Source: a bacterium (GTDB taxonomy: Bacteria; Patescibacteriota; Saccharimonadia; CAILAD01; JADZBC01). Taken from it: DNA of 64,000 nucleotides. The first letter of the stretch is position 1. The number at the start of each line of letters is the position of its first letter. Positions 7,271 through 63,919 of this stretch are shown here, piece by piece. The position numbers and the translations under genes are program-made. The stretch is taken from contig JADZBC010000009.1 in NCBI GenBank assembly GCA_020852295.1, positions 216,058-280,057 on the forward strand, read 5' to 3'. Under the pieces are notes generated by a model. The model saw only the letters and a program-made list of their open reading frames with translations. It made no database searches and was not told the origin of the DNA.

Positions 7271-7333
7271 AGGCCCGCGAAAAAATCACGGGCCCGGGGC
7301 CGGGGGACAGGACTCGAGAGCCCCGTCCCCCGG
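7271..7333. terminator. bidirectional GC-rich hairpin pair between convergent genes
   Basis: Hairpin GGCCCG-cgaaaaaatca-CGGGCC at 7272-7294. Hairpin CCGGGGGAC-17 nt loop-GTCCCCCGG at 7300-7333. Both lie between the stop codons of the 5244..7253 (+) and 7377..8273 (-) genes. Confidence 0.55.
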
Positions 7334-7376
7334 CGGGTGTCGACGCGGTTCCCCCTGTGCACCGCGCGACACGATC

Positions 7377-8273
7377 TCACACCGTCGGGAAGCGCATCCC
7401 CAGCTTGCTGCCCAGCAGGTGCCGGAACGGCGGCTGCTGGTAGGGCTGCTGGAACTTGGCGACATGGTCGCGCATCATCTGGCGGTACTCCTCGGTGTGC
7501 AGACCGAGGCTTCGCGTTGCCAGAGGACGCGCCATCACGGTGATGACTCCCACGGCCCACATGAAGCAGGCCGGGTTGTCGATCGACCAGATGGCCAAGC
7601 TCCAGGCGCCAGCCATGGCGAGAAGTTGTGCGAAGAACTTCTTCTTGCCGTAGTGGTTGGCGCCGGGGACCTCTTGCCCGAGCTTCTGGCAGATGTGCTC
7701 CGTCGGCAGGCTGAGCTTGACCAGTGCCAGCTCCTCCTTGAGCGCCCACAGGGCAGTTCCGGTGAAGACCAGGCCGGCCACGGTGCCGTGGTACGACCAG
7801 GTCAGCCACCAGAACGCGCCCAGCAGGCTGATGAAGTACACCTTGTCGGCGAGCGGGTCGATGCCCTTGCCGATGTCGGTGACGCAGTTACGCCGCGCCT
7901 GATCCGGCGGGCGGTCCAGCATGTCTGGCCAGTTGGGGGCTCCCTTGGGCAGGTAGAGGTTGCGGGCAACCGGTCCGTCCAGCCCATCGAGCAGGGCGAG
8001 TCCGGCGGTCGCGACCAGCCACCAGATGGCAGCATTGGTCGATCCCTTCATGGTCGCGATCGCGAGCTGAGCCACCACGTAGGGCGACACCAGCATGCGG
8101 CCGATGCTCATGATGTTGGCGGACTGCCGCAGGATGGGGCGGAGTCGGGGGAAGCGCATCAGCGGCTGCATCCAGGAGAGGAAGAGCAGCTGAGCGATGT
8201 TGTCAAGGAGCTGGCGGAAGCCAGCCTCGATAGTTGCACCCAGTCCTTGCGGCTGGGAGTTGTCGATGGACAT
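7377..8273 (-). CDS. CDP-alcohol phosphatidyltransferase family protein (high-GC, foreign composition)
   Basis: Matches the signature D-G-x2-A-R...G-x3-D-x3-D (LDGPVAR...GKGIDPLADKVY). Multiple TM helices. About 65% GC with G/C-dominated third codon positions. The ATG at 8273 is preceded by a GAGGAGG RBS. The GTG at 8306 is an alternative start. Confidence 0.7.
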   Translation of the reverse strand: MSIDNSQPQGLGATIEAGFRQLLDNIAQLLFLSWMQPLMRFPRLRPILRQSANIMSIGRMLVSPYVVAQLAIATMKGSTNAAIWWLVATAGLALLDGLDGPVARNLYLPKGAPNWPDMLDRPPDQARRNCVTDIGKGIDPLADKVYFISLLGAFWWLTWSYHGTVAGLVFTGTALWALKEELALVKLSLPTEHICQKLGQEVPGANHYGKKKFFAQLLAMAGAWSLAIWSIDNPACFMWAVGVITVMARPLATRSLGLHTEEYRQMMRDHVAKFQQPYQQPPFRHLLGSKLGMRFPTV

Positions 8274-8309
8274 GGGGAAAGCCTCCTCGGCCGGGGATAG
8301 GTTCACATA

Positions 8310-8337
8310 ACATTATCAAAAAAAGTCAATATTTTCA
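8310..8337 (-). promoter_or_regulatory. candidate sigma70-like promoter (TTGAAA-16-TAATGT on the minus strand) for the phosphatidyltransferase gene
   Basis: An AT-rich -35/-10 pair sits upstream of a GC-rich leader and the GAGGAGG RBS. Confidence 0.4.
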
Positions 8338-8406
8338 AGTCTAACCCTGGCACAACGCCTACTGACGCGTTACAATAAAAGCGGTTATGCCAATCATAAT
8401 CTAACT

Positions 8407-9672
8407 TTGGGTAATTATTTGAAGCTTCCTCGTTTTCTAAAACCAAAAAGTACATCACAGTATCTTGTCGCGCTCGACATCGGTACGGAGTATGTGAAGG
8501 CTCTGATCGGACAGGTGGCTGGTGACAAGGTCGAGATCATCGGCGTTGGCCGGCAGCGACAACGCCTTACGGACATGAGCTCTGGTGCGGTGACCGACAT
8601 CGCCGGTGTCGTAGAGAATTGCGACGCGGCGCTGAAGCGGGCCGAGCAGATGGCAGGTGTCGTCGCCAAAGATGCTGTGCTTGGTATTGCCGGCGAGCTG
8701 GTCAAAGGCGGCTCGACTTCTATCAGCTATCGTCGCGCTCGGCCAAATATCCAGATCGATATGGTTGAGCTGAAGGATATTATTGAGCGAATCCAAAACG
8801 AAGCATTTGAACGTGTCCGTAAGGAACTGGCTTGGGAAACTGGCTACAAGGAGCTCGAAGTGAAGCTTGTCAACGCGGCGGTGGTCGATGTGTACATCGA
8901 TGGCTATCGCGTGACGAATCCAATCGGTTTTCAGGGGCGCGATGTTAGTATCCAGATTTTCAACGCGTTTGCTCCGATGGTGCATCTTGGCGCTCTACAA
9001 TCTGTCGCCAAGGATCTTGATCTCAATCTGATCAACATCGCTGCTGAGCCGTTTGCGGTCGCGAAGAGTGTTGGCGCAGAGGACTCGACAGAGTTTTCAG
9101 CCATTTTCATCGACATTGGTGGCGGTACCAGCGATATTGCAGTCGTCAACAATGGCGGGGTTGAGGGGACCAAGATGTTTGCAATCGGTGGCCGGAGTTT
9201 TACTAAGCGAATAGCCAGCAATCTCGGTGTGTCATTTGAAAAAGCTGAGCAGCTCAAGCTTGATCACTCAGCGGGTAAGCTGGGTGCCAAGCAGGAAAAA
9301 GATGTTGCGGCTGCTTTGGCTGGCGACATCGAAGTCTGGTTGAGTGGGGTTGAGCTGAGCTTGAGTGAATTTGATAAACTGGATCACTTGCCGAACCGTA
9401 TCATGCTCTGTGGAGGTGGTTCGGCTCTGCCAGAGATCAAGCAGGCTCTGATGGGCAGTACTTGGTATAAAAATCTTGGTTTCGCTCGTAAGCCAAAAGT
9501 TGATTTTGTTTCACCAAGTGAAGTGAGTCGCGTGGTTGATAAGACCGGCAAGTTGGTCAATCAGCAAGACATTACTCCGATGGGCTTGGCGAATCTCGGT
9601 CTTGATATCGTTGGCACGGAAAGCATTGGTGAAAATGTCTTACAGCGGCTAAGCCGGACGCTCAGCTTGTAG
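8407..9672 (+). CDS. ftsA: cell division protein FtsA (actin-like ATPase)
   Basis: The motifs LVALDIGTEYVKALIG, FIDIGGGTSDIAVV and LCGGGSALPEIKQAL match the FtsA/actin fold. Apparent TTG start at 8407. Confidence 0.8.
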   Translation: MGNYLKLPRFLKPKSTSQYLVALDIGTEYVKALIGQVAGDKVEIIGVGRQRQRLTDMSSGAVTDIAGVVENCDAALKRAEQMAGVVAKDAVLGIAGELVKGGSTSISYRRARPNIQIDMVELKDIIERIQNEAFERVRKELAWETGYKELEVKLVNAAVVDVYIDGYRVTNPIGFQGRDVSIQIFNAFAPMVHLGALQSVAKDLDLNLINIAAEPFAVAKSVGAEDSTEFSAIFIDIGGGTSDIAVVNNGGVEGTKMFAIGGRSFTKRIASNLGVSFEKAEQLKLDHSAGKLGAKQEKDVAAALAGDIEVWLSGVELSLSEFDKLDHLPNRIMLCGGGSALPEIKQALMGSTWYKNLGFARKPKVDFVSPSEVSRVVDKTGKLVNQQDITPMGLANLGLDIVGTESIGENVLQRLSRTLSL

Positions 9673-9714
9673 TAAAGCATAACATTGATCAAATTTTAGG
9701 TTATAATAACGCAT

Positions 9715-11331
9715 ATGAGTGATATCATTTATCTCGAATCTGACGCCGAGATCACCGAGGCGATCGACAAGCTCAAATCTGCGAAAAAAGACTCTGTGAA
9801 GTTGGTTGTGCCAGCACGATCCTCGTTGCTTCAGAGTGTGGTCAATCTTAAGCTTCTCAAAAAAGCTGCCGCAGATCACAAGCGAGAGCTAATTCTTATC
9901 ACCAACGACAAGACTGCGAAATATCTTGCTGGTGGTGTTGGTCTGGCGGTCGCAGCCAATCTGAAGGCCGAAGCGAAGATCCCTGAAGCCATCAAAGAAG
10001 AGCCGACACCGGACATCATTGAGCCTGATAAATCGCCGCTCGAAGATGATGATTTGCCTATCCACGATGGCAACAAAGCCAAATCGTCCGAGCCAGATGA
10101 ACCGGTAGTCCGGAGCCGATCCCTGACTGACGATCAGCCAGCCGTCGAGCCAAAAAAATCCAAAAAGTCATCGAAGCAGCCGAAGGTGCCAAACTTTAAT
10201 AACCTGCAGAAGCGCACTTGGATTGCTCTCGGTGCAGTTGTGGGTGTAGTCCTACTAATTGTACTGGCGACAGTTGTGCCGTCGGCACAAGTAACCCTAA
10301 AGGTGAATGCCAAAAAGCTCCCGCTGGATCTGAAATTCATCGCTGATAGTAGTATCACCAAGAGCGATTACCCGAACCGCATTGTGCAGGCTACTAAGCT
10401 GCAGACTGAGAAGGATTTGACAGGCAATTTCACAGCTACCGGCAAGAAGGACGTTGGTACGAAGGCGAGTGGTAGTGTGACAATTTCTAATGCATCCAAT
10501 TCGGACCCTATCTCAATTCCTGGTGGTACTACTTTGACCGCAGAGAATCTACGCTTCACGCTCAATGGCAGCACAACTGTGCCGGGTGCTAAGCTGCAGG
10601 GCGGGAACATTATTCCTGGTACTATCAAGGCCGATATTACGGCAAGTGGAAATGGTGATCAGTATAATCTCGGTAATGCCGTTTTCACGATTGCCGGCTT
10701 CAATGGCAAAGTAACCGCAACCGGCTCGACCAGTGGCGGTACATCCAAGCAGGTCACAATTGTGTCTCAGGATGATATCGATAAAGCCAAGGCGACATTG
10801 CTCGATCAGGGCAAGGATCAGCAGAAGAGCGATCTTGTCGAGAAAGCGGGCAAAGATGCCAAGGCTTTTGAGGAGAGTTTTGCGGTAGAGGTACAGAGTT
10901 TTAGTTCCTCGGTAGCGGCTGACAGCGAGAACAGTAGCGGCACCGTGACTGCCAAAGTCCGCTATAGTCTTTTGGCGGTAAAGAAAACTGAACTCGGCAG
11001 TCTTTTTGAAGCAAGCATTAAGTCAGATTTAGAGAAAGGTAGCGAGATCTATGACAATGGTGTGGAATCAGCAAAGTATGCGTTCATCAAATCGGCCGGT
11101 GACGGCAAGGCACAGATTAGTGCTACCGGAACTGCCTATTATGGCGTACCGCTGGATCTAAAGAAAATCGCCTCAGACCTCAAAAATAAGCCAAAAAAAC
11201 AGGTCAATAGCCTTGTGCAGGATTACCCTGATGTCACCGGGGCAACCGTCGACAGCTGGCCACCACTCTTTCCAAATATGCCGGCACTCGACGGCAATAT
11301 CAAGATCAAACTAAGTGTTTCCCAAGATTGA
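9715..11331 (+). CDS. hypothetical bitopic membrane protein in the division gene neighbourhood
   Basis: A roughly 85-aa N-terminal cytoplasmic domain, a charged Pro/Glu/Lys linker, one TM helix (WIALGAVVGVVLLIVLATVV), and a roughly 340-aa Ser/Thr/Gly-rich extracytoplasmic domain. A TATAAT sits 7 nt before the ATG. Confidence 0.5.
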   Translation: MSDIIYLESDAEITEAIDKLKSAKKDSVKLVVPARSSLLQSVVNLKLLKKAAADHKRELILITNDKTAKYLAGGVGLAVAANLKAEAKIPEAIKEEPTPDIIEPDKSPLEDDDLPIHDGNKAKSSEPDEPVVRSRSLTDDQPAVEPKKSKKSSKQPKVPNFNNLQKRTWIALGAVVGVVLLIVLATVVPSAQVTLKVNAKKLPLDLKFIADSSITKSDYPNRIVQATKLQTEKDLTGNFTATGKKDVGTKASGSVTISNASNSDPISIPGGTTLTAENLRFTLNGSTTVPGAKLQGGNIIPGTIKADITASGNGDQYNLGNAVFTIAGFNGKVTATGSTSGGTSKQVTIVSQDDIDKAKATLLDQGKDQQKSDLVEKAGKDAKAFEESFAVEVQSFSSSVAADSENSSGTVTAKVRYSLLAVKKTELGSLFEASIKSDLEKGSEIYDNGVESAKYAFIKSAGDGKAQISATGTAYYGVPLDLKKIASDLKNKPKKQVNSLVQDYPDVTGATVDSWPPLFPNMPALDGNIKIKLSVSQD

Positions 11332-16034: not shown

Positions 16035-16063
16035 TTGTAGTCTTTATCTTTTACTATTACAAT
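16035..16063 (+). promoter_or_regulatory. sigma70-like promoter TTGTAG-17-TACAAT driving the high-GC 143-aa gene
   Basis: AT-rich hexamers with a 17-nt spacer. Located 50 nt upstream of a GAGGGGGG RBS and the ATG. Confidence 0.45.
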
Positions 16064-16112
16064 CTGGGCCAGGTGGATCTACCGCCGCACATGCAACCGA
16101 GGGGGGTGACGC

Positions 16113-16544
16113 ATGAATGTACATGGCAATATGGCACATCGACACTTCAAGCCAGAAGTGACGGCTCGTGTCGTGGCCGATCGAGTGGTGGCAGCCGGGG
16201 GAGATGCGGTGGTGGTGCCAGAGTTGGTCAAGCACCGCAAGGGTGGCCTGGAGATCGTGGGCTGGCAAGTTCACTACGCACCGAGCTACCTGCCCGACTG
16301 GGTACTCGATCCGCGCTGCAAGGAGGAGCCGAAGGTAATGAAGCTCCTCAAGGTGCTCAGCCAGTGGCACGACTGGATCAACGTTCAGCGCATCCGCAAC
16401 GAGCTGTACCTCGATGAGCGCGAGTTCCAGCGCACGGTTGATCTGGCACGCATGCTTCACCTGGTGGAGCACCCAGGAGGTTCGCAGTCGCGGCTCGTGC
16501 TGCTGTCGGCAGGCAGGGCGCGCGTTGAGGCGGCTTCCGCCTAG
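16113..16544 (+). CDS. hypothetical protein, high-GC foreign cassette (143 aa)
   Basis: Third codon positions are almost all G/C. The GAGGGGGG RBS is 6 nt upstream. Has its own promoter and a perfect terminator. The opposite-strand ORF 16044..16751 is a GC-shadow frame. Confidence 0.55.
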   Translation: MNVHGNMAHRHFKPEVTARVVADRVVAAGGDAVVVPELVKHRKGGLEIVGWQVHYAPSYLPDWVLDPRCKEEPKVMKLLKVLSQWHDWINVQRIRNELYLDEREFQRTVDLARMLHLVEHPGGSQSRLVLLSAGRARVEAASA

Positions 16545-16570
16545 AGACCCGGTGCTTCGGCACCGGGTCT
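16543..16570 (+). terminator. intrinsic terminator hairpin GAGACCCGGTGC-TTCG-GCACCGGGTCTC
   Basis: A perfect 12-bp stem with a UUCG tetraloop. Overlaps the stop codon of the 143-aa gene. Confidence 0.6.
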
Positions 16571-16597
16571 CAACCCGTTTATGATATAATTTATTCA

Positions 16598-16833: not shown

Positions 16834-16910
<77 letters not shown>

Positions 16911-16945
16911 TTTGTTCTTATCCAGCAACCCAGGAGGGTGAAGCA

Positions 16946-17188
16946 ATGGCTGATCAGCCAGATGAAACAACCGAGCCGGTCATCCGGCTCACTGGTGGCA
17001 CCATGGAGGTCCACCAGCTCGGTGGAGACGGTGAGGCGCCTCTCGTCGATCGTCCAGATGTCGCCCTACACGGCCTCGGCATCTTCGACCAGGCGGTCGA
17101 GGCGGCCGGTGGGCAGATCGAGGGAGATGTGCACCTGCGCACTCCGGGAGGCCTCCGACTCATCCGAGGCGGAAACGCCGACAACTGA
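16946..17188 (+). CDS. hypothetical small protein (80 aa), high-GC, immediately 3-prime of tRNA-Ala
   Basis: An AGGAGGG RBS is 7 nt upstream of the ATG. G/C-rich third positions. Followed by a hairpin terminator. The overlapping ORFs 16862/16866 (+) and 16954 (-) are artefacts. Confidence 0.45.
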   Translation: MADQPDETTEPVIRLTGGTMEVHQLGGDGEAPLVDRPDVALHGLGIFDQAVEAAGGQIEGDVHLRTPGGLRLIRGGNADN

Positions 17189-17211
17189 GACACAGGGGCT
17201 CGGGAGCTTCC

Positions 17212-17241
17212 GAAGAGGGGCCTTCGGGCTCCTCTTCATTT
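17212..17241 (+). terminator. hairpin GAAGAGGGGCC-TTCG-GGCTCCTCTTC followed by ATTTT
   Basis: A 10/11-bp stem with a UUCG loop and a U-rich tail. Terminates the tRNA-adjacent high-GC ORF. Confidence 0.5.
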
Positions 17242-17257
17242 TAGCTATAATAATAAT

Positions 17258-29528: not shown

Positions 29529-29999
29529 ATGGCACGGAAATCCGGTGATCTAATTGATATCCATGTGTCGGTCGACTCACTCGTACCGTCTGAGGTAGTG
29601 GTAAGGGAGACGAGCTTTCCGATCTCGGCGGGTCGAGTTGTCGCGCTGATGAAGCGGGGGGAGTGTTGGCGCAACCAGCTTGAGCCCCATGACGCGAGTG
29701 AAGGTGTCGAACTACCCGAATTCGGTCCCGTTGCTGACGCGATCAACCGTGCGTTGGCAGATGATGATCGGATCAGTGGCTGGTTTATCGTCGATGCTCA
29801 CACACTCATTGTCCAGCTCAATGACTTAGGCTGGGATGATGAGCGGACCAACGGCGCACTCGAGGTGGCGCAGTGGCTGTGCGAGGTGCTGCAGCGCGCA
29901 CTAAGCGCAACTGGCAGTCGACGCCACATCAAGTTCGCACCACCGGCCTTCACGCTGTTCGCGGACTACCACTGCACTCCCATGGATGTCACAACCTAG
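29529..29999 (+). CDS. hypothetical protein (156 aa), high-GC island gene 1
   Basis: GAGGGGG RBS. G/C-dominated third positions. Lies between rnc and smc. Confidence 0.5.
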   Translation: MARKSGDLIDIHVSVDSLVPSEVVVRETSFPISAGRVVALMKRGECWRNQLEPHDASEGVELPEFGPVADAINRALADDDRISGWFIVDAHTLIVQLNDLGWDDERTNGALEVAQWLCEVLQRALSATGSRRHIKFAPPAFTLFADYHCTPMDVTT

Positions 30000-30127
30000 A
30001 TCTCTCTAGTCCTGGAGGGGTCTAGAGAACGCAATTATATTTCTCGATACTTGACCAGGGCACCAACTACTCCTATGCTTAGGGCGAGCGACCGCTCGCA
30101 CCATCTACAATCTGGAGGTACGTCACG

Positions 30128-31159
30128 ATGACGCCCACCCTCATGCGACGGGTCGGCGCATCTGCCGGCACGATCGTTGACGCACTCACTCATCCGCCCT
30201 ATGGCTGGGGTGAGCATCGCGACTTCGAGTCGCACGCCGATCATGGCTCGGTTGCCGTTACGTTTGAGGATCAGCCGGTGGTGGTGGAGTACTACCACTT
30301 CCCGGCCGGTCCGCATGCGCCGACGGTCTTCATCTGCAACGGCTTCACGGCCAATGCAGGGGTGTATGGCCCACTCGGCAAGGCTGTCTGGCACCACGAG
30401 CACAACGTTGTGCTATTGAGCCTGCCTGGTCACGGCGGCACTACGCTGCCAATGCATCGTCCACTTGGCTATGCCGACACTGCCGAGATCATGATCTCGG
30501 CGATCGAGGCAATCCGTCATGAGACTAGCATGGTCGGGGAGATCATCCTGGCCGGTCACTCTCACGGTGGCGGTGTAGCGATGGCGATCGCGGTGCGGCT
30601 GGGTCAGCAGGCCAATCGGCTGATCTTGCTGGCTTCGGTCGGTGGGCCCGAATGGAGCCGGATCACAACCCACATGCAGCAGAGCCTTGATGGCATTCGC
30701 GCTTGCCACCCCAATCTCGGACAGGTGAGTCGGGACCTACAAGTCCTGGCCATGCTGTTCGGAGAGGGGCTGCTGATGGTGCCACCACCGTGGGATGCCG
30801 TCAACGCCGGCAAGGAGCTGATCCTGCCGTTCGCCCGTGGCTTCCGCGGCTGGCGTCGTCCGCTTGAACTGTGGAGTGTGGCAATCGACACCATCGTCGG
30901 CGACGCTTACTCGCTCGAGAGCGATCTCGCGCAGGTGAAGCGACTGGGTATCCCAACGGCCTGTGTGGCGGGCAAGCTCGATGGCGTGATCAACCGCAAG
31001 GTCATCCGGCAACAGGCCAAGCTGGCGGGTGCTGGGGAGTTTCACTACACCACCACCCATGCCAGCTTCCTCGCACCGGAGGCACGTCGTCGTATCGCCG
31101 AGCTCATCACTCTGCCAGATGATTCGTTCAAGTTGGCCGTCGAGAAGCATCTTCGCTGA
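30128..31159 (+). CDS. alpha/beta hydrolase (high-GC island gene 2)
   Basis: G-x-S-x-G nucleophile elbow (AGHSHGG). A CTGGAGG RBS sits upstream. Confidence 0.65.
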   Translation: MTPTLMRRVGASAGTIVDALTHPPYGWGEHRDFESHADHGSVAVTFEDQPVVVEYYHFPAGPHAPTVFICNGFTANAGVYGPLGKAVWHHEHNVVLLSLPGHGGTTLPMHRPLGYADTAEIMISAIEAIRHETSMVGEIILAGHSHGGGVAMAIAVRLGQQANRLILLASVGGPEWSRITTHMQQSLDGIRACHPNLGQVSRDLQVLAMLFGEGLLMVPPPWDAVNAGKELILPFARGFRGWRRPLELWSVAIDTIVGDAYSLESDLAQVKRLGIPTACVAGKLDGVINRKVIRQQAKLAGAGEFHYTTTHASFLAPEARRRIAELITLPDDSFKLAVEKHLR

Positions 31160-31179
31160 TCGGTCTCTGCCCACTCGGG

Positions 31180-31207
31180 GAACCCGCCCCCGGGTGGGTT
31201 CTTCGTT
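31180..31207 (+). terminator. hairpin GAACCCGCC-CCCG-GGTGGGTTC followed by TTCGTTG
   Basis: The stem contains one G-U pair. Lies directly after the island hydrolase stop. Confidence 0.45.
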
Positions 31208-35899: not shown

Positions 35900-35928
35900 T
35901 TGACAAATCCCCTATTTTATGCTAATAT
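35900..35928 (+). promoter_or_regulatory. consensus sigma70 promoter TTGACA-17-TAATAT (cassette copy 1)
   Basis: Perfect -35 and a near-consensus -10 with a 17-nt spacer. Duplicated at 36580-36608. Confidence 0.6.
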
Positions 35929-36034
35929 TTCTTCTAATTCCTACCTGTATGGATAGGTGGAGGAGCCCTCGGGTAACTCAGCGGCGTAGCTCTGGCGCCA
36001 CCCCAGAGCACTTGAAATGGAAGGAGGTGCTCGG
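35929..36034 (+). promoter_or_regulatory. structured roughly 105-nt leader, copy 1 (mutually exclusive hairpins GGCGU..GCGCC and GCTCTGG..CCAGAGC)
   Basis: Conserved against copy 2 at about 75% identity, with compensatory substitutions. Ends in an AAGGAGG RBS. Confidence 0.5.
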
Positions 36035-36463
36035 ATGAGCACCACCGAACTGAAGAAGGTCAACCTGCTCGAGTTCTTCGAGAAGGTGATCAACGGTCCC
36101 TCCCGCGAGGAGCTGTTCGACAGCCTGCGGCTGTTCAACCTCCGCCAGACGCTGGTCGAGTTCACGCTCGAGCAGAAGCGGCTGCGCGGATCGATGGTCA
36201 AGCCGACGGTCATCAAGGCCCGCGTCATGGGCATCCGTCCCGAGGACGGGTCGTCCAACCGCTGGCTGGTGGACCTGCTGGTCAACCAGATCGTCAACAG
36301 CGACACCGAGCCGGAGGACCCGTACGTCTCGATCTACTTCGACACCCAGGTGCGAGCAGGGCACATCATCGTCCCGCCGCAGCGCGAGGTCGTCGTGCGA
36401 GACGGACAGATCGTGCTGGACGGCACGGTGATCGGGAACCTCCCGGCCGCCACGTTCAGCTGA
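36035..36463 (+). CDS. hypothetical protein A (142 aa), high-GC cassette cargo, paralog of the 36713..37075 protein
   Basis: AAGGAGG RBS 8 nt upstream. Shares GPSREELFD(S/A)L and GI(R/S)xEDGSxNxW(L/I) blocks with protein B. G/C-rich third positions. Confidence 0.55.
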   Translation: MSTTELKKVNLLEFFEKVINGPSREELFDSLRLFNLRQTLVEFTLEQKRLRGSMVKPTVIKARVMGIRPEDGSSNRWLVDLLVNQIVNSDTEPEDPYVSIYFDTQVRAGHIIVPPQREVVVRDGQIVLDGTVIGNLPAATFS

Positions 36464-36469
36464 TCTTCG

Positions 36470-36577
36470 GCAAGCCAGGCCACTGGGGCCCGTGAAGATT
36501 CTACGCTTCAACGATCCGATACGTTAATTCGGGTCACCACCCAAGTTCATAACTCGTTTGTGAGTTTAGGTGGAAAG
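36470..36577 (+). repeat. 3-prime flank repeat copy 1 (about 108 nt, 97% identical to 37079-37184)
   Basis: Direct repeat containing an AACTC-gtttgt-GAGTT hairpin. Immediately followed by the next promoter. Confidence 0.7.
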
Positions 36578-36579
36578 TA

Positions 36580-36608
36580 TTGACAATATGTATTAAATAT
36601 GCTAATAT
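36580..36608 (+). promoter_or_regulatory. consensus sigma70 promoter TTGACA-17-TAATAT (cassette copy 2)
   Basis: Same hexamers and spacing as copy 1. Confidence 0.6.
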
Positions 36609-36712
36609 TTCTTCGATTCTTACCTGCATGGGTAAGTGGAGACGCCTTCGGGCATCTTAACGGCGCAGCTCTGGCGCCATCCCAGAGCACAAAACAGAAA
36701 GGGGTGTCTCGT
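36609..36712 (+). promoter_or_regulatory. structured leader, copy 2
   Basis: Hairpins CTTACC-tgcatg-GGTAAG and GCC-TTCG-GGC. Alternative pair GGCGC..GCGCC and GCTCTGG..CCAGAGC. RBS AAAGGGG. Confidence 0.5.
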
Positions 36713-37075
36713 ATGAGCACCGCCACCATCCACCCCGAAGACAAGTTCTTCGGACCCTCCCGCGAGGAGTTGTTCGACGCACTCGAACACGACCGAACCC
36801 TTCGCATGACACTGGAGAAGGACTGGTCGCAGACCAGCGATCCGCGGCAGATCGTCTTCCGGGTCATCGGCATCAGCCGCGAAGATGGTTCGAACAACTC
36901 CTGGATCCTGGAGATCGCCCTCGTGTCTGCCGTGGAGGAGCGGTTCTACCAGGGGGTCGAGGCATCGCTCAACTTCGGTGATCGCGGAGGTAAGAAGTTC
37001 GCCTCCGTCCTCGGTCGCAAGATCCGGGTGCACTACTCCTCAGCGAAGGCTGAAGGCCGATTCCTGGAGTTCTGA
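36713..37075 (+). CDS. hypothetical protein B (120 aa), paralog of protein A
   Basis: The ATG follows the leader. Conserved blocks are shared with protein A. High GC3. Confidence 0.55.
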   Translation: MSTATIHPEDKFFGPSREELFDALEHDRTLRMTLEKDWSQTSDPRQIVFRVIGISREDGSNNSWILEIALVSAVEERFYQGVEASLNFGDRGGKKFASVLGRKIRVHYSSAKAEGRFLEF

Positions 37076-37078
37076 GTG

Positions 37079-37184
37079 CAAGCCAGGCCACTGGGGCCGT
37101 GAAGCTTCTACGCTTCAACGATCCGATACGTTAATTCGGGTCACCACCCAAGTTCATAACTCGCTTGTGAGTTTAGGTGGAAAA
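37079..37184 (+). repeat. 3-prime flank repeat copy 2
   Basis: Near-identical to 36470-36577 (one indel, three substitutions). Confidence 0.7.
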
Positions 37185-37194
37185 TACTAAAACG

Positions 37195-37237
37195 GTACAA
37201 GCCCCCGACAAGATTGCTCTCGTCGGGGGCTTTGTAC
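37195..37237 (-). terminator. strong hairpin GTACAAAGCCCCCGAC-12 nt-GTCGGGGGCTTGTAC with a U-rich tail on the minus strand
   Basis: A 15-16-bp stem abutting the stop of the minus-strand ligase gene. May act bidirectionally. Confidence 0.6.
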
Positions 37238-38508
37238 TACACCAACACCGTGCCGGTCAGGATGGCATCCTTCGCGCCGTGCACGGCCTTGTTCGGCCGA
37301 GCCGTGATGGCGATGTCCTCCACGCCGGTTCGGCTGAAGTAGGCGGTGAGGCGCAGCTGCCATTCACCCGGCGGATCGAGCTGACCGCGCTCGTCGAATC
37401 GCTGCCAGGCGAACCGGCGGTTGGTCACCTCGCGCTGGAGGATGTTGGCGCCCCGCTGCCGACTGGCCGCCAGCAGCGCCTCGCCGAACTCCGGCTCGTC
37501 GCCGAAGTAGATGCCGCGCATTCCCGAAGCCACTGACTGCTTGAGCACCAGACCGTGGTGGTTCGACAGCTGGGGCGTTGTCCAGTCGCGGCCGATGATG
37601 TGGGTCATCGGCAAGTGCGACCGCACGACACGCAGAGCCGATTCACTGATCTGACTGCGCACCAGCGCTTCGATGGCCGGGTCGCCCACCGCGTTGCTCA
37701 CCACCCCGAGCAGCGACTTGCTCGCCAAGAAGTGCTTGGGGGAGATGAGGCACTGCAGCGTGCCACTCTTCAAGCCGGCGCGGAGCCAGTCGATGAGCGG
37801 CTTGTTGTAGTTCATCGGCGGCATGTCGATGAGGGTCGGCGGCAGCACCTCGCCCGTGCGGGCGTGACGCATGACGCCGGAGTGCACATCGACCTGCAGC
37901 TCGTTGATCACAGCCATCTCGATGCCCAGGAGCTTGAGCTCGCGAGCGATGATCGCAAACTCCGGCTCGTAGAAGCGCTGCGTGTCACCGAACAGGAACG
38001 TCACCGCGTCAATGCGGCGGCGCCGGCACTCAGCGGCGATGTAAGCAGCGACACCCGGGAGCTGTGCGGCCTCGGGCCGGAGCACCTGGCAGATGCGTCG
38101 ACCGATGATGGAGTAGCCCCAGCTGCGGGGGTTCGTCGCATCGATCTCGGCCAACCAGATGTGGCCCTGCTCGTCGATGAGCAGGTCGCACTTGCGCAGG
38201 ATGGGGAGGTTGCGCGGCCGGTTGTTGGGCAGCTTGTAGGGCGTGCCCTGCTTGAGGGTGTTGCCGATGCGTCCGTACGGCAGCATCTTGCCACACAGAT
38301 CCGGCTGCTCGCTGATGGCGACGATCCGGCTGATACCACCCAGCACCTCGTCGATGGCGGGGGCCAGCTGGTTGAGCTGGTTGAGCTGGTCGCTACCCAG
38401 TTCGTATACGTCCGGTGAGAGCTGGAAAGCGTGCGACCGCTCCTGCTCGCCGTTCCAAATGCCCGTCTCACGGACAGTTTCTTGCAACTCCGCAAACATG
38501 GTGTCCAT
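37237..38508 (-). CDS. glutathionylspermidine-synthase-like (YgiC/YjfC family) ATP-grasp amidoligase, high-GC
   Basis: Motif order matches the GspS-like family. The N-terminal block LIDEQGHIWLAEIDATNP matches YgiC LDLAWDG..LLENNADTP. The C-terminal lysine block GLVLKQSVASGMRGIYF matches YgiC YVVKPIFSREGANVSI. Start taken at the second ATG, which has an AAAGGA RBS. The longest ORF starts at 38541. Confidence 0.6.
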   Translation of the reverse strand: MDTMFAELQETVRETGIWNGEQERSHAFQLSPDVYELGSDQLNQLNQLAPAIDEVLGGISRIVAISEQPDLCGKMLPYGRIGNTLKQGTPYKLPNNRPRNLPILRKCDLLIDEQGHIWLAEIDATNPRSWGYSIIGRRICQVLRPEAAQLPGVAAYIAAECRRRRIDAVTFLFGDTQRFYEPEFAIIARELKLLGIEMAVINELQVDVHSGVMRHARTGEVLPPTLIDMPPMNYNKPLIDWLRAGLKSGTLQCLISPKHFLASKSLLGVVSNAVGDPAIEALVRSQISESALRVVRSHLPMTHIIGRDWTTPQLSNHHGLVLKQSVASGMRGIYFGDEPEFGEALLAASRQRGANILQREVTNRRFAWQRFDERGQLDPPGEWQLRLTAYFSRTGVEDIAITARPNKAVHGAKDAILTGTVLV

Positions 38509-38611: not shown

Positions 38612-39049
38612 TTATTCAGTGATGAGTTTTTGAAATTGCGAAAGAGTGGTGATGGTATGCTCGGGCGTAAAGCCAACTGGTTCTTCGTCGGCGAAGCGAC
38701 CCTGGCGATACCAGACGGTTGGCCAGCCAGCTTTATGGCCGAACGCGATCTCGCCAAGCGCGCGATCGCCAATGACAAACGATTTGCTTAAGTCGGTGTC
38801 ATACTTTTGAGCGAGTTGGCGAAATACTTTTTGCGACTTGGTATCCATCAAAATAATTTCGGCGAAGTACTCTGCAATACCGAGCTGCTCAATCAGTGCC
38901 TGGCGTGACGGTGCAGCCATGGCAAGCAGGATGAGTGTATAGCCTTGATCGCGTGCGGTATCAAGTAGCGATTGTGCGCCGTCGATGAGCTGATTTGTGT
39001 CTGGATCGTAAAGTGTTCGATTGAAGTCGAAGATGATGAGTTGGTTCAT
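38612..39049 (-). CDS. HAD-family hydrolase
   Basis: Motif I IIFDFNRTLYD and C-terminal motif VIGDRALGE. Native composition. AGGAA RBS. Confidence 0.65.
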   Translation of the reverse strand: MNQLIIFDFNRTLYDPDTNQLIDGAQSLLDTARDQGYTLILLAMAAPSRQALIEQLGIAEYFAEIILMDTKSQKVFRQLAQKYDTDLSKSFVIGDRALGEIAFGHKAGWPTVWYRQGRFADEEPVGFTPEHTITTLSQFQKLITE

Positions 39050-39282
39050 GATTGTTCCTTTCGTTAGACTAAAAAACCTCTTGGAGGCCAAGAGGTCGTC
39101 GGTTTTTTAGATTTTGCGTATAGCTAAAATGACCTCTCGGCTGAGTGGCTGTTCCAAAAGTGATAGTGAAACTGGTTGGCTGTTTGCTTCATGTTGCGAC
39201 AAATACTAACAATCATTTTCGGTTATGTCAACAGTCAATGTATTTGTGCTAGAAGCCGAGTAGTTGTTATGCTTTATATAGC

Positions 39283-53746: not shown

Positions 53747-53767
53747 ACTGATATCTTAGTGCAATCC

Positions 53768-54261: not shown

Positions 54262-54343
54262 TTGCAATATTGCCTAATTTATGTTAGAGTATATTTTCCG
54301 CTCAATCCCGAGTGGTAACCCGTTCCCCGACAACTGGAGTGAC
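54262..54343 (+). promoter_or_regulatory. cassette 1 promoter (TTGCAA-17-TAGAGT) and leader with hairpin plus conserved CCCGTTCCCCGACA box
   Basis: The box at 54319-54332 is shared verbatim with cassettes 2 and 3. GGAG RBS. Confidence 0.5.
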
Positions 54344-54712
54344 ATGCCCAAGAAGAAGAACAACCCCAAGCTCGTGACCGGTGAGGTCAAGTGGACCCTG
54401 ACGGACCGAGGCAAGGCTGGTCGTTGCCACCACCTGGTGGACATCGATGGCAAGCGAGTGCGCGGCACCGCCGGCATCAAGCTGGACGGCTACTGCACCA
54501 TCGTCTACAACCCCGCCAACGAGACCATCCGCTTCGTCGAGCGTTCGATCATGGACATCGACGAGGTGCCGCGTGGCGCCAAGCTGGTCCTCGAGCACGT
54601 GGGCGACCCGGTCGCCCGCTGGGGCTTCCTCCCGGCCGATCTCGGCGGCAACCCGCCGGAGGGCACGGTCGTGATCATCGGCTCCTCGGAGCTGGCCACG
54701 GCCAACGCCTGA
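54344..54712 (+). CDS. hypothetical protein P1 (122 aa), high-GC cassette cargo
   Basis: GC3 about 90% by eye. GGAG RBS 6 nt upstream. Unique sequence. Confidence 0.55.
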   Translation: MPKKKNNPKLVTGEVKWTLTDRGKAGRCHHLVDIDGKRVRGTAGIKLDGYCTIVYNPANETIRFVERSIMDIDEVPRGAKLVLEHVGDPVARWGFLPADLGGNPPEGTVVIIGSSELATANA

Positions 54713-54732
54713 GACCTTCGGGTCGAACGGGA

Positions 54733-54804
54733 CCCGGGACGCAGTTGCGTCCCGGGGATCCCCCTGAGCTATCTTATGCAAAGATGGTTGAGGGGGATTT
54801 TTTG
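54733..54804 (+). terminator. conserved 3-prime element 1: CCCGGGACGC-AGTT-GCGTCCCGGG hairpin, then ATCCCCC-(TGAGC..GGTTGA loop)-GGGGGAT hairpin, then T6
   Basis: The two-hairpin module is repeated after each of the three cassettes. Confidence 0.6.
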
Positions 54805-54817
54805 TAGCTATACAATA

Positions 54818-54894
54818 TTGAAATTACATTATAAATATGTTAAAGTGATATGACCCTCTCACGAGGGCCCGTTCCCCGACACAAGGAGGCAGCA
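54818..54894 (+). promoter_or_regulatory. cassette 2 promoter (TTGAAA-17-TAAAGT) and leader with CCCTC-tcac-GAGGG hairpin plus CCCGTTCCCCGACA box
   Basis: Same architecture as cassettes 1 and 3. AAGGAGG RBS. Confidence 0.5.
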
Positions 54895-55269
54895 ATGCCC
54901 GAAAGCACCCAGACAATCCTCGCGGTTGTCAGCGAAGTCCATGCCCGGCACGCTCCGCACACCTTCGACGCCATGGGACTGTTCATTCTCGACAGTGATC
55001 AGCCCCACGACGCGTCGTATCGCGGTTTGCGTCCGCTCGGCTTCCGCTGTTCGCACTTCGATGAGCAGACAGGTCGAGTCTGGTTCGGTGACGTCGATGA
55101 GGCACACCGTGTCTCGGCGCCGTCCATCCGCGACCTGGAAGCCGGCCAACAGTTGGTCCTTATCCAGGAGCAGGCTGGTGAGTTGCTGTGGGGTCTGCCC
55201 ACGCCCACTCTCAAGGCGGCCCTCGACTACATGTTCGATGGGTTCATGCAGCTGGCCTACGGTGGCTGA
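54895..55269 (+). CDS. hypothetical protein P2 (124 aa), high-GC cassette cargo
   Basis: Perfect AAGGAGG RBS 7 nt upstream. GC3-rich. Unrelated to P1 and P3. Confidence 0.55.
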   Translation: MPESTQTILAVVSEVHARHAPHTFDAMGLFILDSDQPHDASYRGLRPLGFRCSHFDEQTGRVWFGDVDEAHRVSAPSIRDLEAGQQLVLIQEQAGELLWGLPTPTLKAALDYMFDGFMQLAYGG

Positions 55270-55288
55270 CACCTCGGCTGGAACGGGA

Positions 55289-55358
55289 CCTGAGGCGCGC
55301 AAGCGCCTCGGGAGTCCCCCTGAGCTATCTTATGCAAAGATGGTTGAGGGGGATTTTT
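55289..55358 (+). terminator. conserved 3-prime element 2: CCTGAGGCGC-GCAA-GCGCCTCGGG (GNRA loop), then TCCCCC-(TGAGC..GGTTGA)-GGGGGA, then T5
   Basis: The second hairpin is identical to element 1. The first hairpin is structurally equivalent with sequence covariation. Confidence 0.6.
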
Positions 55359-55362
55359 AGTA

Positions 55363-55449
55363 TTGAAAAAATTGTGTAATCATGCTATAGTATCAAAACT
55401 CTCTCAGCCGAGAGGGTATCCGTTCCCCGACAGATTAGATTGGACCCCG
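55363..55449 (+). promoter_or_regulatory. cassette 3 promoter (TTGAAA-17-TATAGT) and leader with CTCTC-tcagcc-GAGAG hairpin plus CCGTTCCCCGACA box
   Basis: The -35 starts right after the U-tract of element 2. The box lies at 55420-55432. Confidence 0.5.
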
Positions 55450-55926
55450 ATGACCCAACGCAATTCATCCTCCCGCCGTCCACGAGGTGATCAGCCTCGT
55501 CGTGCTGGAGGTACTCCCTCCCGTGCCGATGCCCGAACGGGCGGCACACGTACGGGCCAACCGCCGCGTCGCAAGATGTCGGCTACCACCCATCGAGCCA
55601 TCGTCAAGGTGCTCGACCCCCGCAACGAGGGTCAGTACTTCGGCTTCGTTCGACTGCTCGACGAGCAGGGTGTGCAGACCGGCGAGGAGGTCTACTTCCG
55701 CTGGAATGACGGCAGCCCCGTCGAGTACAAGCCGGGCGGCCACGTCTGGTTCGTCGACCCGAACAACAAGGGCGACCACAAGCGCAAGCCGGTGGTCGAG
55801 CGACCCATGCCGGGCGACCACATCGTCTGCCGTGTCGTGGTCACGCATCGCGGCAAGAAGGTCCTGATGTGGGGCTTCTACGACCGCGACCTCCACGAGG
55901 CAGCGATTCGTCAGGGTTGCGACTGA
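55450..55926 (+). CDS. hypothetical protein P3 (158 aa): Arg-rich disordered N-terminus plus OB-fold (cold-shock-like) domains
   Basis: AIVKVLDPRNEGQYFGFVRLLDEQG...EVYFRWNDG resembles the CSD signature GxVKWFNxxKGFGFI...DVFVHxS. High GC3. Confidence 0.5.
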   Translation: MTQRNSSSRRPRGDQPRRAGGTPSRADARTGGTRTGQPPRRKMSATTHRAIVKVLDPRNEGQYFGFVRLLDEQGVQTGEEVYFRWNDGSPVEYKPGGHVWFVDPNNKGDHKRKPVVERPMPGDHIVCRVVVTHRGKKVLMWGFYDRDLHEAAIRQGCD

Positions 55927-55943
55927 TCCAAGTCGGGGCAACG

Positions 55944-56005
55944 CCCGGAGCGCGCAAGCGTTCCGGGTAGCCCCTGAGCCAATAGTCATGTTGGTTGAGG
56001 GGCTA
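55944..56005 (+). terminator. conserved 3-prime element 3: CCCGGAGCGC-GCAA-GCGTTCCGGG, then TAGCCCC-(TGAGC..GGTTGA)-GGGGCTA
   Basis: Same two-hairpin topology as elements 1 and 2, with compensatory stem changes. No U-tract. Confidence 0.5.
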
Positions 56006-56046
56006 GAGATAATCATTAAAAAGTGCTATAGTTGAAGCCTAATTAG

Positions 56047-60438: not shown

Positions 60439-60471
60439 GAGGCCCATCGTTTGATGGGCCTCGTGTATAAT
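60439..60471 (+). promoter_or_regulatory. terminator hairpin GAGGCCCATC-GTTT-GATGGGCCTC, immediately followed by extended -10 TGTATAAT
   Basis: Perfect 10-bp stem after the protease stop. TGnTATAAT sits 24 nt upstream of the heliorhodopsin ATG, which has an AGAGG RBS. Confidence 0.55.
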
Positions 60472-60495
60472 GTACGTATAAACATAAGAGGTTAC

Positions 60496-62599: not shown

Positions 62600-62649
62600 A
62601 AGTCTCTGGCCAATAGGCGTATAATTGAACTGTAAGCAAGGAGAAATAT

Positions 62650-63039
62650 ATGTCGACTTACATTCATGATGCAAAGGACAAAGCCAAAGAAAACAGCTAT
62701 TTCCGCCAAGTAGTAGCACACTCAGACAAGACCCAGGTGGTCTTGATGAGCTTGCTACCAGGTGAAGATATTGGTATGGAAGTGCACCCCAACGAGGATC
62801 AGGTGCTCTACTGCGTAGCGGGTAGCGGTAAATGTGTTTTGGATGGTGCTGAGCACTCGTTTGAGAAGGGGGATGTGGTGCTTGTCAGTGCCGGTACTGA
62901 GCACAACTTTATCAACGGTGACGATGAACCAATGAAGATTATCACTACCTACTCACCACCTCACCACAAGGATGGCACTGTTCACAAGACAAAAGCCGAT
63001 GCCGAAGCAGCTGAGGCTGCAGAACACGGCGACTCCTAG
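62650..63039 (+). CDS. cupin-domain protein
   Basis: Cupin motifs G(x)5HxH-like (MEVHPNEDQVLYCVAG) and GTEHNF. Confidence 0.7.
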   Translation: MSTYIHDAKDKAKENSYFRQVVAHSDKTQVVLMSLLPGEDIGMEVHPNEDQVLYCVAGSGKCVLDGAEHSFEKGDVVLVSAGTEHNFINGDDEPMKIITTYSPPHHKDGTVHKTKADAEAAEAAEHGDS

Positions 63040-63056
63040 TCTTTTACAAAAGACAC

Positions 63057-63085
63057 AAAAAGGCAACCAATTAGGTTGCCTTTTT
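63057..63085 (+). terminator. AAAAGGCAACC-AATTA-GGTTGCC followed by TTTTT
   Basis: Perfect 7-bp stem with flanking A-run and U-tract. Its 3-prime half doubles as the -35 (TTGCCT) of the next promoter (TTGCCT-17-TATAGT). Confidence 0.65.
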
Positions 63086-63143
63086 AGTAAAATTATGTTA
63101 TAGTATCAACCTTCGTTTTGTTCGTCTAGCGGGGAGGTATCCC

Positions 63144-63854
63144 ATGGAAGCGAAGAAGCCATCTGCCCGCGAGCTCGTCTCACTGGCAGTTCTCGTGACG
63201 GTCTTCACTTGGTTGAGCCGTCGTCGTGTTGGACTCGGCCTCAGCCGAGCACGGAGTGGCTGGAAGGCCAACCCGCTGCGCATGGTTGCGCAACTGGTCA
63301 CCTCGGTGATCATCGGCCAGGGCATCTTCTGGCTGGTGGGTTACGACCAGCTTGGTATCAGCATGAACCCGACTCATCAGATGGGTCGACTCAAGCAATT
63401 GGCCGAGCGATTGGCTGAGAAGGTGCCGGATGACCCGCTCTGGGCCTGGCTCCTCAAGGCGCTTGAAATCGCCACCGACTTCGGGAAGTGCCCGATCGAG
63501 GGAGCGGTTTACCTGCGTCACGGCATCGTCAGCGATGCCGTAGCGGCTGGTGTGACGCAGCCATGGTGGAGTGTGGTCGAGGGAGCTGAGAAGTTCAACG
63601 GGGCGCTGATGCATCCCGAGCGGGTCAACACCCGTGAGCAGATCGCGCTCTCGATCGGCTGCACACTCGGCAGCCTATTCCGCTACCTGTTGGCCGCGAT
63701 CGTGTGGTTCGGTGGCGGTGTCATCAATCGCCAGCTGACCGATCGACTCGAACGCGGCTATCGCGAGCTGGACCCCGTGATCATCACTGGTTCTGGTGTG
63801 GTGGTGGCAGTCATCATCGGTCACGGCCTTCGGGTCGGCAACCAGACGAACTGA
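63144..63854 (+). CDS. hypothetical polytopic membrane protein, high-GC island gene
   Basis: GGGGAGG RBS. GC3-rich. Four or more TM helices. Followed by a complex GC hairpin. Confidence 0.55.
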   Translation: MEAKKPSARELVSLAVLVTVFTWLSRRRVGLGLSRARSGWKANPLRMVAQLVTSVIIGQGIFWLVGYDQLGISMNPTHQMGRLKQLAERLAEKVPDDPLWAWLLKALEIATDFGKCPIEGAVYLRHGIVSDAVAAGVTQPWWSVVEGAEKFNGALMHPERVNTREQIALSIGCTLGSLFRYLLAAIVWFGGGVINRQLTDRLERGYRELDPVIITGSGVVVAVIIGHGLRVGNQTN

Positions 63855-63861
63855 AGTACGA

Positions 63862-63919
63862 CCCCGGTGGGCACAGCGATCTCGAATCCGTCCTGCCGGG
63901 GTCGCTGTGCGTTTATTTG
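63862..63919 (+). terminator. nested GC hairpins (CCCCGG..CCGGGG; CACAGCGA..TCGCTGTG) followed by TTTATTT
   Basis: Lie directly after the island membrane-protein stop. Confidence 0.45.

Follow-up and report, generated by a model that had tools for sequence, protein, structure and literature searches.

Segments of deviant base composition in bacterial genomes are routinely read as recent transfers, and in the epibiotic Saccharibacteria as gene flow from the host. In the amelioration model, horizontally acquired islands decay in composition toward the host genome. Other described systems also bear some resemblance to what is reported here: phage morons, units within prophages that deviate in composition and have a promoter, gene and terminator of their own; integron arrays, whose cassettes are normally promoterless; and the bldA/TTA regulon of Streptomyces, a small gene set marked by an evolutionarily persistent codon choice. 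The present analysis concerns a 64-kb stretch (the window) of a 383,787-base contig (GenBank JADZBC010000009.1, positions 216,058 to 280,057) from a soil Saccharimonadia. Twelve genes rich in G and C, grouped in seven islands, stand out in it from the surrounding native genes (Table 1); they encode a predicted CDP-alcohol phosphatidyltransferase, a putative ATP-grasp ligase, a predicted alpha/beta hydrolase and a number of small proteins. Based on comparison with relatives, we consider it probable that these islands are long-resident, lineage-restricted accessory genes whose GC content is held up by a gene-specific directional force and is not a relic of their source.

Like genomic islands, the segments are gene-sized and compositionally deviant and occupy variable slots, one of them beside a tRNA gene, and at least one of them is an insertion. 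Unlike genomic islands, they had neither an integrase or transposase nor direct repeats at their flanks, and the position of the traceable genes, which have no homologs outside the lineage, is conserved in deeply diverged relatives. In contrast to the amelioration model, the transferase and ligase genes are unameliorated although their synonymous sites have turned over. The islands are also GC-rich, whereas an AT-rich composition is typical of recently acquired and orphan bacterial genes. With morons they share a sigma70-type promoter of their own, a factor-independent terminator and a deviant composition; however, their neighbours are housekeeping genes (FtsA, AlaRS, TypA, SMC, TrmD) and there is no phage context. 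Islands 5a and 6 resemble integron arrays in being tandem short open reading frames (ORFs) with conserved 3' hairpin elements, but no integrase was found, and each cassette is preceded by a promoter of its own and by a conserved 5' leader. Tandem duplication explains islands 5a and 6, since each array consists of diverged paralogs. The bldA/TTA regulon is similar as a small gene set with a persistent codon choice and differs in that a single rare codon is involved there, as opposed to a whole-gene shift to G/C-ending codons in the islands. A mechanism of this general type is the one we favour, with modest confidence, for keeping up the island composition. Host-to-epibiont transfer in the Candidate Phyla Radiation concerns the same organism group and is plausible: Saccharibacteria are naturally competent (PMC10633639), uptake of host DNA through their type IV secretion system, which is of monoderm origin, has been proposed (10.1101/2025.01.22.634366), and the low GC of clade G6 has been ascribed in part to transfer from streptococci (PMC8386444). 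In the present case, however, no donor was found and the traceable genes are specific to Saccharibacteria.

The window as a whole has 51.5% GC, and a 400-base GC profile shows sharp peaks of 0.60-0.67 where a first-pass annotation of the sequence had placed the islands. Relative to a native baseline of 44 genes (GC 0.49 ± 0.03; GC at third codon positions, GC3, 0.52 ± 0.05, with a maximum of 0.60), all twelve island genes, which make up 11% of the window, are outliers both in GC (0.58-0.66, z = 3-6) and in GC3 (0.64-0.94, z = 2.8-9.2). In the reading frames that had been named, GC3 exceeds GC1 and GC1 exceeds GC2, as in real coding sequence. The first-pass annotation was therefore right about the existence of deviant islands and about native genes of about 50% GC (49% measured), while its island value of 65-70% GC was overstated (58-66% measured). 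Its description of third positions as almost exclusively G or C applies to five genes with GC3 of 0.81-0.94 (the transferase, both island 5a paralogs, the ligase and the first island 6 gene); the remaining seven have GC3 of 0.64-0.76. The enrichment is not confined to coding sequence. In the islands, GC is 0.59 in the leaders (-40 to -1) and 0.60 in the 60 bases that follow the stop codon, versus 0.39 and 0.43 in native genes, and the island promoter zone is AT-rich. Island genes use AAG (0.99), ATC (0.94) and TTC (0.93), favour CTG and CTC, and contain no TTA, ATA or AGA. The shift from native to island usage is uneven among the two-fold codon families, from 0.55 to 0.99 for Lys AAG and only from 0.38 to 0.62 for Asp GAC. 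All three codon positions are GC-shifted, and glycine, alanine, arginine and proline together account for 0.31 of island residues versus 0.26 of native ones.

Relatives could be traced for three of the twelve island genes, namely those for the transferase, the ligase and the hydrolase. The word-indexed protein searches are insensitive below about 35-40% identity, and the assignment of relatives to the same lineage rests on genomic context; the searches gave no taxonomy labels. The relatives with syntenic orthologs are labelled Candidatus Saccharibacteria or Saccharimonadia, which bears out an earlier guess at the nature of the organism. In 12 of 13 relatives (six ligase and seven transferase loci) the ortholog has a GC3 above the median of its own locus, the difference ranging from -0.00 to +0.38 with a median of about +0.18, against locus backgrounds of 0.42-0.57 GC. 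The preference for AAG, ATC and TTC is kept in these relatives.

The transferase matches Pfam PF01066 (48.8 bits, cut-off 22), and its motif D-G-x2-A-R-x8-G-x3-D-x3-D is invariant at D96, G100, A103, R104, G135, D139 and D143 in eight orthologs. Four homologs were found in the protein collection. With the 80 loci fetched via FtsA included, the gene is present in eight loci (L011, L012, L013, L014, L015, L016, L017 and L036; the prefix L denotes loci of relatives), and in every one of them it is divergent from FtsA. The GC3 difference from the own-locus median is +0.38, +0.22, +0.18, +0.18, +0.22, +0.18 and -0.00. In about 17 more distant Saccharibacteria loci, AlaRS and FtsA are directly adjacent, so the transferase is an insertion into an older gene order; in this respect the earlier reading of at least one island as inserted holds. 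The insertion is older than the split of a clade in which FtsA proteins share only 74-76% identity. It is noted that the AlaRS-FtsA interval is a hot spot, holding elsewhere unrelated genes that are often GC-elevated (L064, L071, L072, L078 and L085, by +0.11 to +0.17 GC). A 22-residue insertion (YLPKGAPNWPDMLDRPPDQARRN, residues about 106-130) in the spacer of the catalytic motif is found in the transferase of the window's clade only, the more distant orthologs being without it.

The ligase gives a similar picture. Its sequence is 100% identical to the hypothetical protein IT414_02190, and the small island ORFs are annotated in the same record. Among 5.8 billion proteins it has 13 homologs, and in all six distinct relatives with DNA (L001, L003, L005, L007, L009 and L010) the gene lies directly downstream of the same HAD gene. 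L009 is collinear with the window (27.6-39 kb) from NusB through TrmD and the ligase to HAD, with the ligase also adjoining TrmD. The identities of ligase and HAD to their window counterparts are 69/68, 56/57, 55/59, 50/41, 45/51 and 41/29%; such tracking of one protein by the other fits vertical descent. The ligase GC3 differs from the own-locus median by +0.08, +0.08, +0.30, +0.27, +0.27 and +0.05. HAD itself has GC3 of 0.40-0.62 across the relatives, and in all of them the two genes are about 100 bp apart in an apparent operon, so that the composition step between HAD and ligase is sharp (about 100 bp) and kept in all relatives. In the window the ligase, which has no promoter of its own, likewise lies some 100 bp downstream of the HAD gene of native GC, which is its conserved upstream partner and probably its operon mate. 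The AlphaFold model of the ligase (pLDDT, the predicted local distance difference test, of 91) was matched by Foldseek to glutathione synthetases, GspS, YgiC and YjfC with a probability of 1.0, E-values down to 1e-16 and a template-modelling score of about 0.6; no Pfam or NCBIfam family scored above cut-off, the one match being to a YheC/D fragment (16.7 bits). The predicted fold is that of an ATP-grasp enzyme of the glutathione-synthetase/glutathionylspermidine-synthase type.

The hydrolase scores above the cut-offs of Pfam Hydrolase_4, Abhydrolase_6 and Abhydrolase_1. An exhaustive HMMER search of 1.84 billion representatives returned two true relatives, with 38% and 43% identity; the further matches reflect generic nucleophile-elbow similarity only. 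One of the two relatives, P0051, whose contig was fetched (L103), is encoded between the genes for RNase III and SMC, in the slot that the hydrolase occupies in the window. The corresponding slot of L009 holds a different gene, and the 156-aa gene of island 4 is absent there. Thus, same-lineage matches and a similar composition in relatives were found together for the transferase and the ligase, while the hydrolase shares the slot and not the GC content.

The high GC3 has persisted through extensive synonymous turnover. Between the window and L036, FtsA is 97% identical at the protein level with a saturated synonymous divergence (pS) of 0.77, and its GC3 is 0.57 and 0.44, respectively; the transferase beside it has GC3 of 0.88 and 0.86. 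When codon mismatch is scored at residues that are identical, and saturation is taken from a within-residue shuffle, the mismatch reaches 91% of saturation for FtsA and 70% for the transferase in this pair, and 88% for the ligase and 74% for HAD between the window and L005. In the latter comparison the strong (G/C) or weak (A/T) state of the synonymous third positions of the ligase is nearly independent (phi 0.11, p = 0.08), and GC3 at those sites is 0.88 in the window and 0.84 in L005; HAD keeps more memory (phi 0.30). Synonymous turnover with GC3 kept at 0.81-0.88 indicates a steady state and not a decaying relic. By a rough calculation, under neutral relaxation toward the background, at the pace given by the turnover of these sites, each lineage would have lost about half to two-thirds of the excess after the two separated, and an ancestral GC3 above 1 would be needed. 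The outgroup GC3 is about 0.61-0.68, and the comparison suggests that the clade of the window and L005 moved upward. The high GC3 thus behaves as a stationary, gene-specific state rather than as slow amelioration. The first-pass annotation had taken the islands for unameliorated, recent high-GC acquisitions. This does not fit the transferase and ligase, which were found only in Saccharibacteria, in the same slots and GC-elevated, with their synonymous sites turned over.

Several observations weigh against a maintained, gene-specific state. The transferase ortholog in L015 is not GC-elevated, the ligase excess is merely +0.05 to +0.08 in L001, L003 and L010, and the hydrolase ortholog in L103 has an unelevated GC3 of 0.49. 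Only three of the twelve island genes are traceable, and persistence concerns two gene families, transferase and ligase, in which the elevation is non-universal and possibly the outcome of lineage-specific events. Nor are the 13 relatives independent of one another in phylogeny, and the excess is larger in some lineages than in others. The shift in amino-acid composition fits a bias at the DNA level as well as it fits selection. Pervasive recombination among strains makes biased conversion or allele replacement feasible, and the synonymous divergence of the transferase between the window and L036, which is below that of FtsA, fits a later transfer between lineages too. Another such point, a GC-rich PurH gene in L009, is taken up below.

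Abrupt compositional steps at gene boundaries are also what would be expected if the window were an assembly or binning chimera of organisms with 50% and 65% GC. The same junctions, however, recur in assemblies made independently from several samples and sources: island 6 is joined to its flanks in the same way in 10 independent contigs, all three cassettes being present; island 1 recurs in three close-strain contigs (L105-L107), with orthologs also in the Joint Genome Institute (JGI) contigs L013 and L036; and the ligase ortholog adjoins HAD in the JGI contig L005. In addition, the islands are pieces of 0.4-1.7 kb embedded in a long contig, and promoters of native style abut them. We regard a chimera as ruled out for practical purposes because the junctions recur across independent assemblies.

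An acquisition that is recent and unameliorated, from a high-GC donor and most attractively from the actinobacterial host, appears unlikely to us, although it would account for a number of observations. The island codon usage resembles that of a genuine organism of 63-66% GC and is unlike that of native genes and of high-GC Saccharibacteria. In its syntenic slots L009 lacks both the 156-aa gene of island 4 and the paralogs of island 5a, the latter being missing from its TrmD-ligase interval, and islands 2 and 3 flank a tRNA gene. The competence and the proposed import of host DNA mentioned above would provide a route. A PurH/MGS-domain gene of 0.63 GC is present in two distant Saccharibacteria with genomes of 0.42-0.45 GC, L009 (7608-9152, minus strand) and L007 (3520-4170, minus strand); the L009 protein is closest, among solved structures, to M. 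tuberculosis PurH (390 bits vs 304 for the next), and such transfer may therefore occur in the phylum. For the islands themselves the evidence points elsewhere. The homologs of the three traceable genes are all Saccharibacteria orthologs, placed in the same slots wherever their context was checked; the best identities to anything other than self are 38-76%, none from a high-GC context, and the third-position excess has withstood synonymous turnover. No donor-like homolog of these three genes was seen in phages, plasmids or the protein collections, and tblastn with all island proteins gave zero matches in 50,697 phage genomes (actinophages included) or 72,556 plasmids. Among solved structures the closest relative of the transferase is Staphylococcus PgsA and not the mycobacterial phosphatidylinositol-phosphate synthase. 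Finally, near-consensus AT-rich sigma70 promoters imply long residence or promoter capture. An ancient foreign origin, for example an old actinobacterial one, is possible, given that the transferase breaks up an ancestral AlaRS-FtsA neighbourhood.

A phage, plasmid or defence origin was also considered and was rejected on the tblastn result and on generic family matches. Scans against PHROGs, NCBIfam and PADLOC gave matches only to generic hydrolases (esterase) and to PgsA. The nine other island proteins had no Pfam match, and those of them that were scanned had none in PHROGs, NCBIfam or PADLOC. In viral contigs, the island 6 leader motif had one chance match, inside a helicase gene, and the third cassette protein had none. 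No integrase or transposase domain was detected among the ORFs scanned against Pfam, a subset of those in the window, in agreement with what had been noted before. Flanking direct repeats had been suggested as something to look for, and the repeat search yielded internal cassette duplications only.

If the GC content is maintained, a force is required, and GC-biased gene conversion deserves consideration: the accessory genes would be recombination hot spots at which heteroduplex repair favours G and C. Between the window and strains about 97% identical to it (positions 43-12739 compared with L105, and 48895-57897 with L093), the pS of native genes varies between 0.006 and 0.34. Such a gene-to-gene mosaic points to frequent homologous recombination, consistent with natural competence; the close strains other than the window are nearly identical to one another. 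Pervasive recombination, the shift of all three codon positions and of the amino acids, and the GC-rich leaders and 3' regions would all be in keeping with biased conversion. However, conversion tracts could hardly produce the sharp and conserved boundary between HAD and ligase, two-fold codon families are shifted to very different degrees, and islands 1 and 6 have neither excess diversity nor a special mosaic pattern among strains. To our knowledge, the GC3 effect of +0.2 to +0.4 is also far above what has been reported for bacterial biased gene conversion. We therefore give this explanation rather little credence. It should be mentioned that the low pS in island 6 (0.024 vs 0.106 in the flanks) was examined as a possible sign of constraint and rejected as such; island 1 is mid-range, and the native range reflects the recombination mosaic.

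Recombination in conserved flanks could also exchange island alleles repeatedly for others drawn from a pool of relatives with high GC. The same FtsA clade does contain Saccharibacteria loci with GC of 0.60-0.64 (L020, L029 and L035), recombination is frequent, and the transferase is less diverged than FtsA at synonymous sites between the window and L036. These high-GC relatives, however, use AAA at 0.67, GAA at 0.44 and TTT at 0.43, compared with the near-exclusive AAG of the islands, and they were rejected as donors on codon usage. Moreover, no transferase homolog lies by FtsA in any high-GC locus, no ligase or transferase homolog has a background above 0.57 GC, and the ligase identity tracks that of its native neighbour HAD. 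Replacement from such a pool thus seems improbable, more so than either recent transfer or biased conversion. Within the window's FtsA clade, genomes span 0.44-0.64 GC, and the high-GC members reach their values through C-ending codons while keeping AAA, GAA and TTT.

The sharp HAD/ligase boundary and the uneven codon-family shift together favour a force acting on individual coding sequences over regional conversion, and the unevenness by itself argues against a uniform A/T to G/C pressure. Translational selection for expression was rejected, since ribosomal protein S16 has a native GC3 of 0.46. We propose the following for the islands as long-resident genes. They probably entered long ago, by insertion at hot spots between the genes of an epibiont with natural competence. 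Their high GC would represent a separate compositional steady state under a gene-specific directional force. Our best guess, held with modest confidence, is that this force would be selection on the coding sequence or mRNA itself, with biased gene conversion as the second choice, and that the set of G/C-ending codons would set the island genes apart in translation or mRNA stability.

Table 1. Coordinates of the islands and of associated features in the window; promoters, leaders and hairpins were read from the sequence.
Feature	Position	Strand	Details
Island 1	7279..8338	-	Promoter, GC-rich leader with GAGGAGG, coding sequence, 3' hairpin and T-run
Island 1 promoter	8338-8310	-	TTGAAA-17-TAATGT
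Transferase (predicted)	8273-7377	-	GC 0.65, GC3 0.88
Island 1 GC-rich hairpin and T-run	about 7332-7279	-	
Island 2	16035..16584	+	Promoter TTGTAG-17-TACAAT at 16035-16063; hairpin terminator at 16548-16584
Island 2 orphan, 143 aa	16113-16544	+	GC3 0.75; no Pfam or PHROG match
tRNA-Ala(GGC)	16834-16910	+	Rfam; island 3 directly after
Island 3 orphan, 80 aa	16946-17188 (unit 16834..17245)	+	GC 0.65, GC3 0.68; hairpin terminator at about 17196-17240
Island 4	29529..31205	+	rnc-smc slot; 156-aa orphan and predicted alpha/beta hydrolase
Island 4 orphan, 156 aa	29529-29999	+	GC3 0.64
Alpha/beta hydrolase (predicted)	30128-31159	+	GC3 0.73; GHSHG nucleophile elbow
Island 4 terminator hairpin	about 31163-31205	+	
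Island 5a	35900..37190	+	Two tandem cassettes, a paralog pair; promoter, leader, coding sequence and 3' element each
Island 5a promoters	35900-35928; 36580-36608	+	TTGACA-17-TAATAT
Island 5a coding sequences	36035-36463; 36713-37075	+	GC3 0.94; 0.81; 41% amino-acid identity over 63 residues
Island 5a 94-nt structured 3' elements	36486-36579; 37093-37186	+	96% identical
Island 5b	37204..38508	-	423-aa ATP-grasp ligase (predicted fold); ends at hairpin 37204-37232
Ligase coding sequence	38508-37237	-	GC 0.65, GC3 0.88
HAD-like hydrolase, native GC	39091-38612 (unit 38612..39231)	-	GC3 0.54
HAD promoter	39231-39203	-	TTGACA-17-TAGTAT
Island 6	54262..55998	+	Three tandem cassettes; AT-rich promoter, leader, coding sequence, 3' hairpin and terminator each
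Island 6 leaders	54320; 54869; 55420	+	Hairpin and CCGTTCCCCGACA
Island 6 coding sequences	54344-54712; 54895-55269; 55450-55926	+	GC3 0.91; 0.74; 0.76; very distant paralogs
Island 7	63076..63915	+	Promoter TTGCCT-17-TATAGT at 63076-63104; hairpin terminator at about 63862-63915
Island 7 coding sequence	63144-63854	+	236-aa predicted membrane protein; GC3 0.75; no family match

The slots of the islands lie among housekeeping genes: between AlaRS and FtsA, between rnc and smc, between TrmD and HAD, upstream of TypA, and beside tRNA-Ala. Most islands are compact units, in which an AT-rich sigma70-like promoter precedes a leader rich in G and C, a coding sequence of high GC3 and a GC-rich hairpin. 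The four promoters quoted in the first-pass annotation are all present in the sequence, with the correction that the spacer between TTGAAA and TAATGT is 17 and not 16. An AT-rich promoter for each island, as had been described, is found in most units, the exceptions being the ligase and the 80-aa ORF of island 3, which directly follows tRNA-Ala with no separate promoter visible. Promoter-like sites are three- to four-fold above shuffled sequence in the two island regions scanned. Hairpins had likewise been said to bound the islands; by eye, a GC-rich hairpin followed by a T-run is seen after islands 1, 2, 3, 4, 6 and 7, but a simple terminator scan of the same two regions found no enrichment over shuffles.

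The small-protein islands are less readily compared. The exact island 2 protein is present on nine contigs, all of the same species, and islands 2 and 3 lie on either side of tRNA-Ala. The small cassette proteins were not found in about 1.1 Mb of relatives' DNA, most of which represents other parts of the genome. In island 5a, the leaders of roughly 100 nt are 83% identical between the two copies. In island 6, the promoters, leaders and 3' elements are 71-78% identical and the 3' hairpin shows compensatory changes, while the proteins are barely alignable apart from a common C-terminal motif, ...LV..H.G..V..WGF..DL; the predicted structure of an island 6 protein has a pLDDT of only 51. The cassette proteins of islands 5a and 6 share 17-41% identity, far below the noncoding elements. 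Both islands appear to have arisen by tandem duplication, with rapid divergence of the proteins and conservation of the 5' and 3' elements. The cassette leaders and 3' elements (54235-56030 and 35900-37190) may be regulatory RNA or DNA elements of an unrecognised kind; an Rfam scan of the window returned two tRNAs only and no known riboswitch or leader.

For every testable island the GC shortcut fails: the genes are old, lineage-specific and syntenic, and two of the three are GC-rich in relatives. A broader possibility, which we put forward tentatively and regard as less likely than the reading of the islands themselves, is that Saccharibacteria genomes of 42-57% GC contain a stable GC3-rich accessory subset that outlasts synonymous saturation under an active gene-specific force. 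No report of persistent high-GC genes in Saccharibacteria was found in the literature. If such a subset exists, it would include genes for lipid head groups, the ligase and the small-protein cassettes, perhaps for interaction with the host. The candidate forces would be a codon- or mRNA-composition regulon with G/C-ending codons that avoids AAA, AUA and UUA and might, for instance, uncouple the translation or mRNA survival of its genes from those of other genes in the genome, or else a highly localised conversion bias. If the pattern is genome-wide, GC-based detection overcalls recent horizontal transfer in this phylum, and some force keeps a gene-specific base composition in small, recombining genomes, which bears on whether it is selection or biased gene conversion that sets bacterial GC content. 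The system lends itself to testing, as many metagenomic populations of these organisms exist.

Some further features of the window were noted. Intermediate GC3 values occur in genes outside the list of islands, namely a class II (B12) ribonucleotide reductase (41709-44363, plus strand, GC3 0.69), a DUF308 membrane protein (45703-45951, minus strand, 0.70) and a second alpha/beta hydrolase (46050-46787, plus strand, 0.58). Two small HAD-like hydrolases of about 143 aa (17258-17692, plus strand, and 38612-39091, minus strand) each adjoin a GC-rich gene, the 80-aa ORF and the ligase, respectively. In close strains, with nucleotide identity of about 97%, an additional native-GC gene for a secreted-looking protein of 601 aa lies between TypA and a Trypsin_2 protease (L093, 9004-10976); the window counterpart (57898-58060) is without it. 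A LysM-CHAP peptidoglycan hydrolase (13040-14194, plus strand) and a TreT-like glycosyltransferase of the trehalose synthase type (49479-51152, minus strand), both of native composition, possibly serve host interaction in an epibiont on Actinobacteria. A heliorhodopsin gene, also of native composition, is located at 60451-61266 on the plus strand (Pfam PF18761, E = 1e-100).

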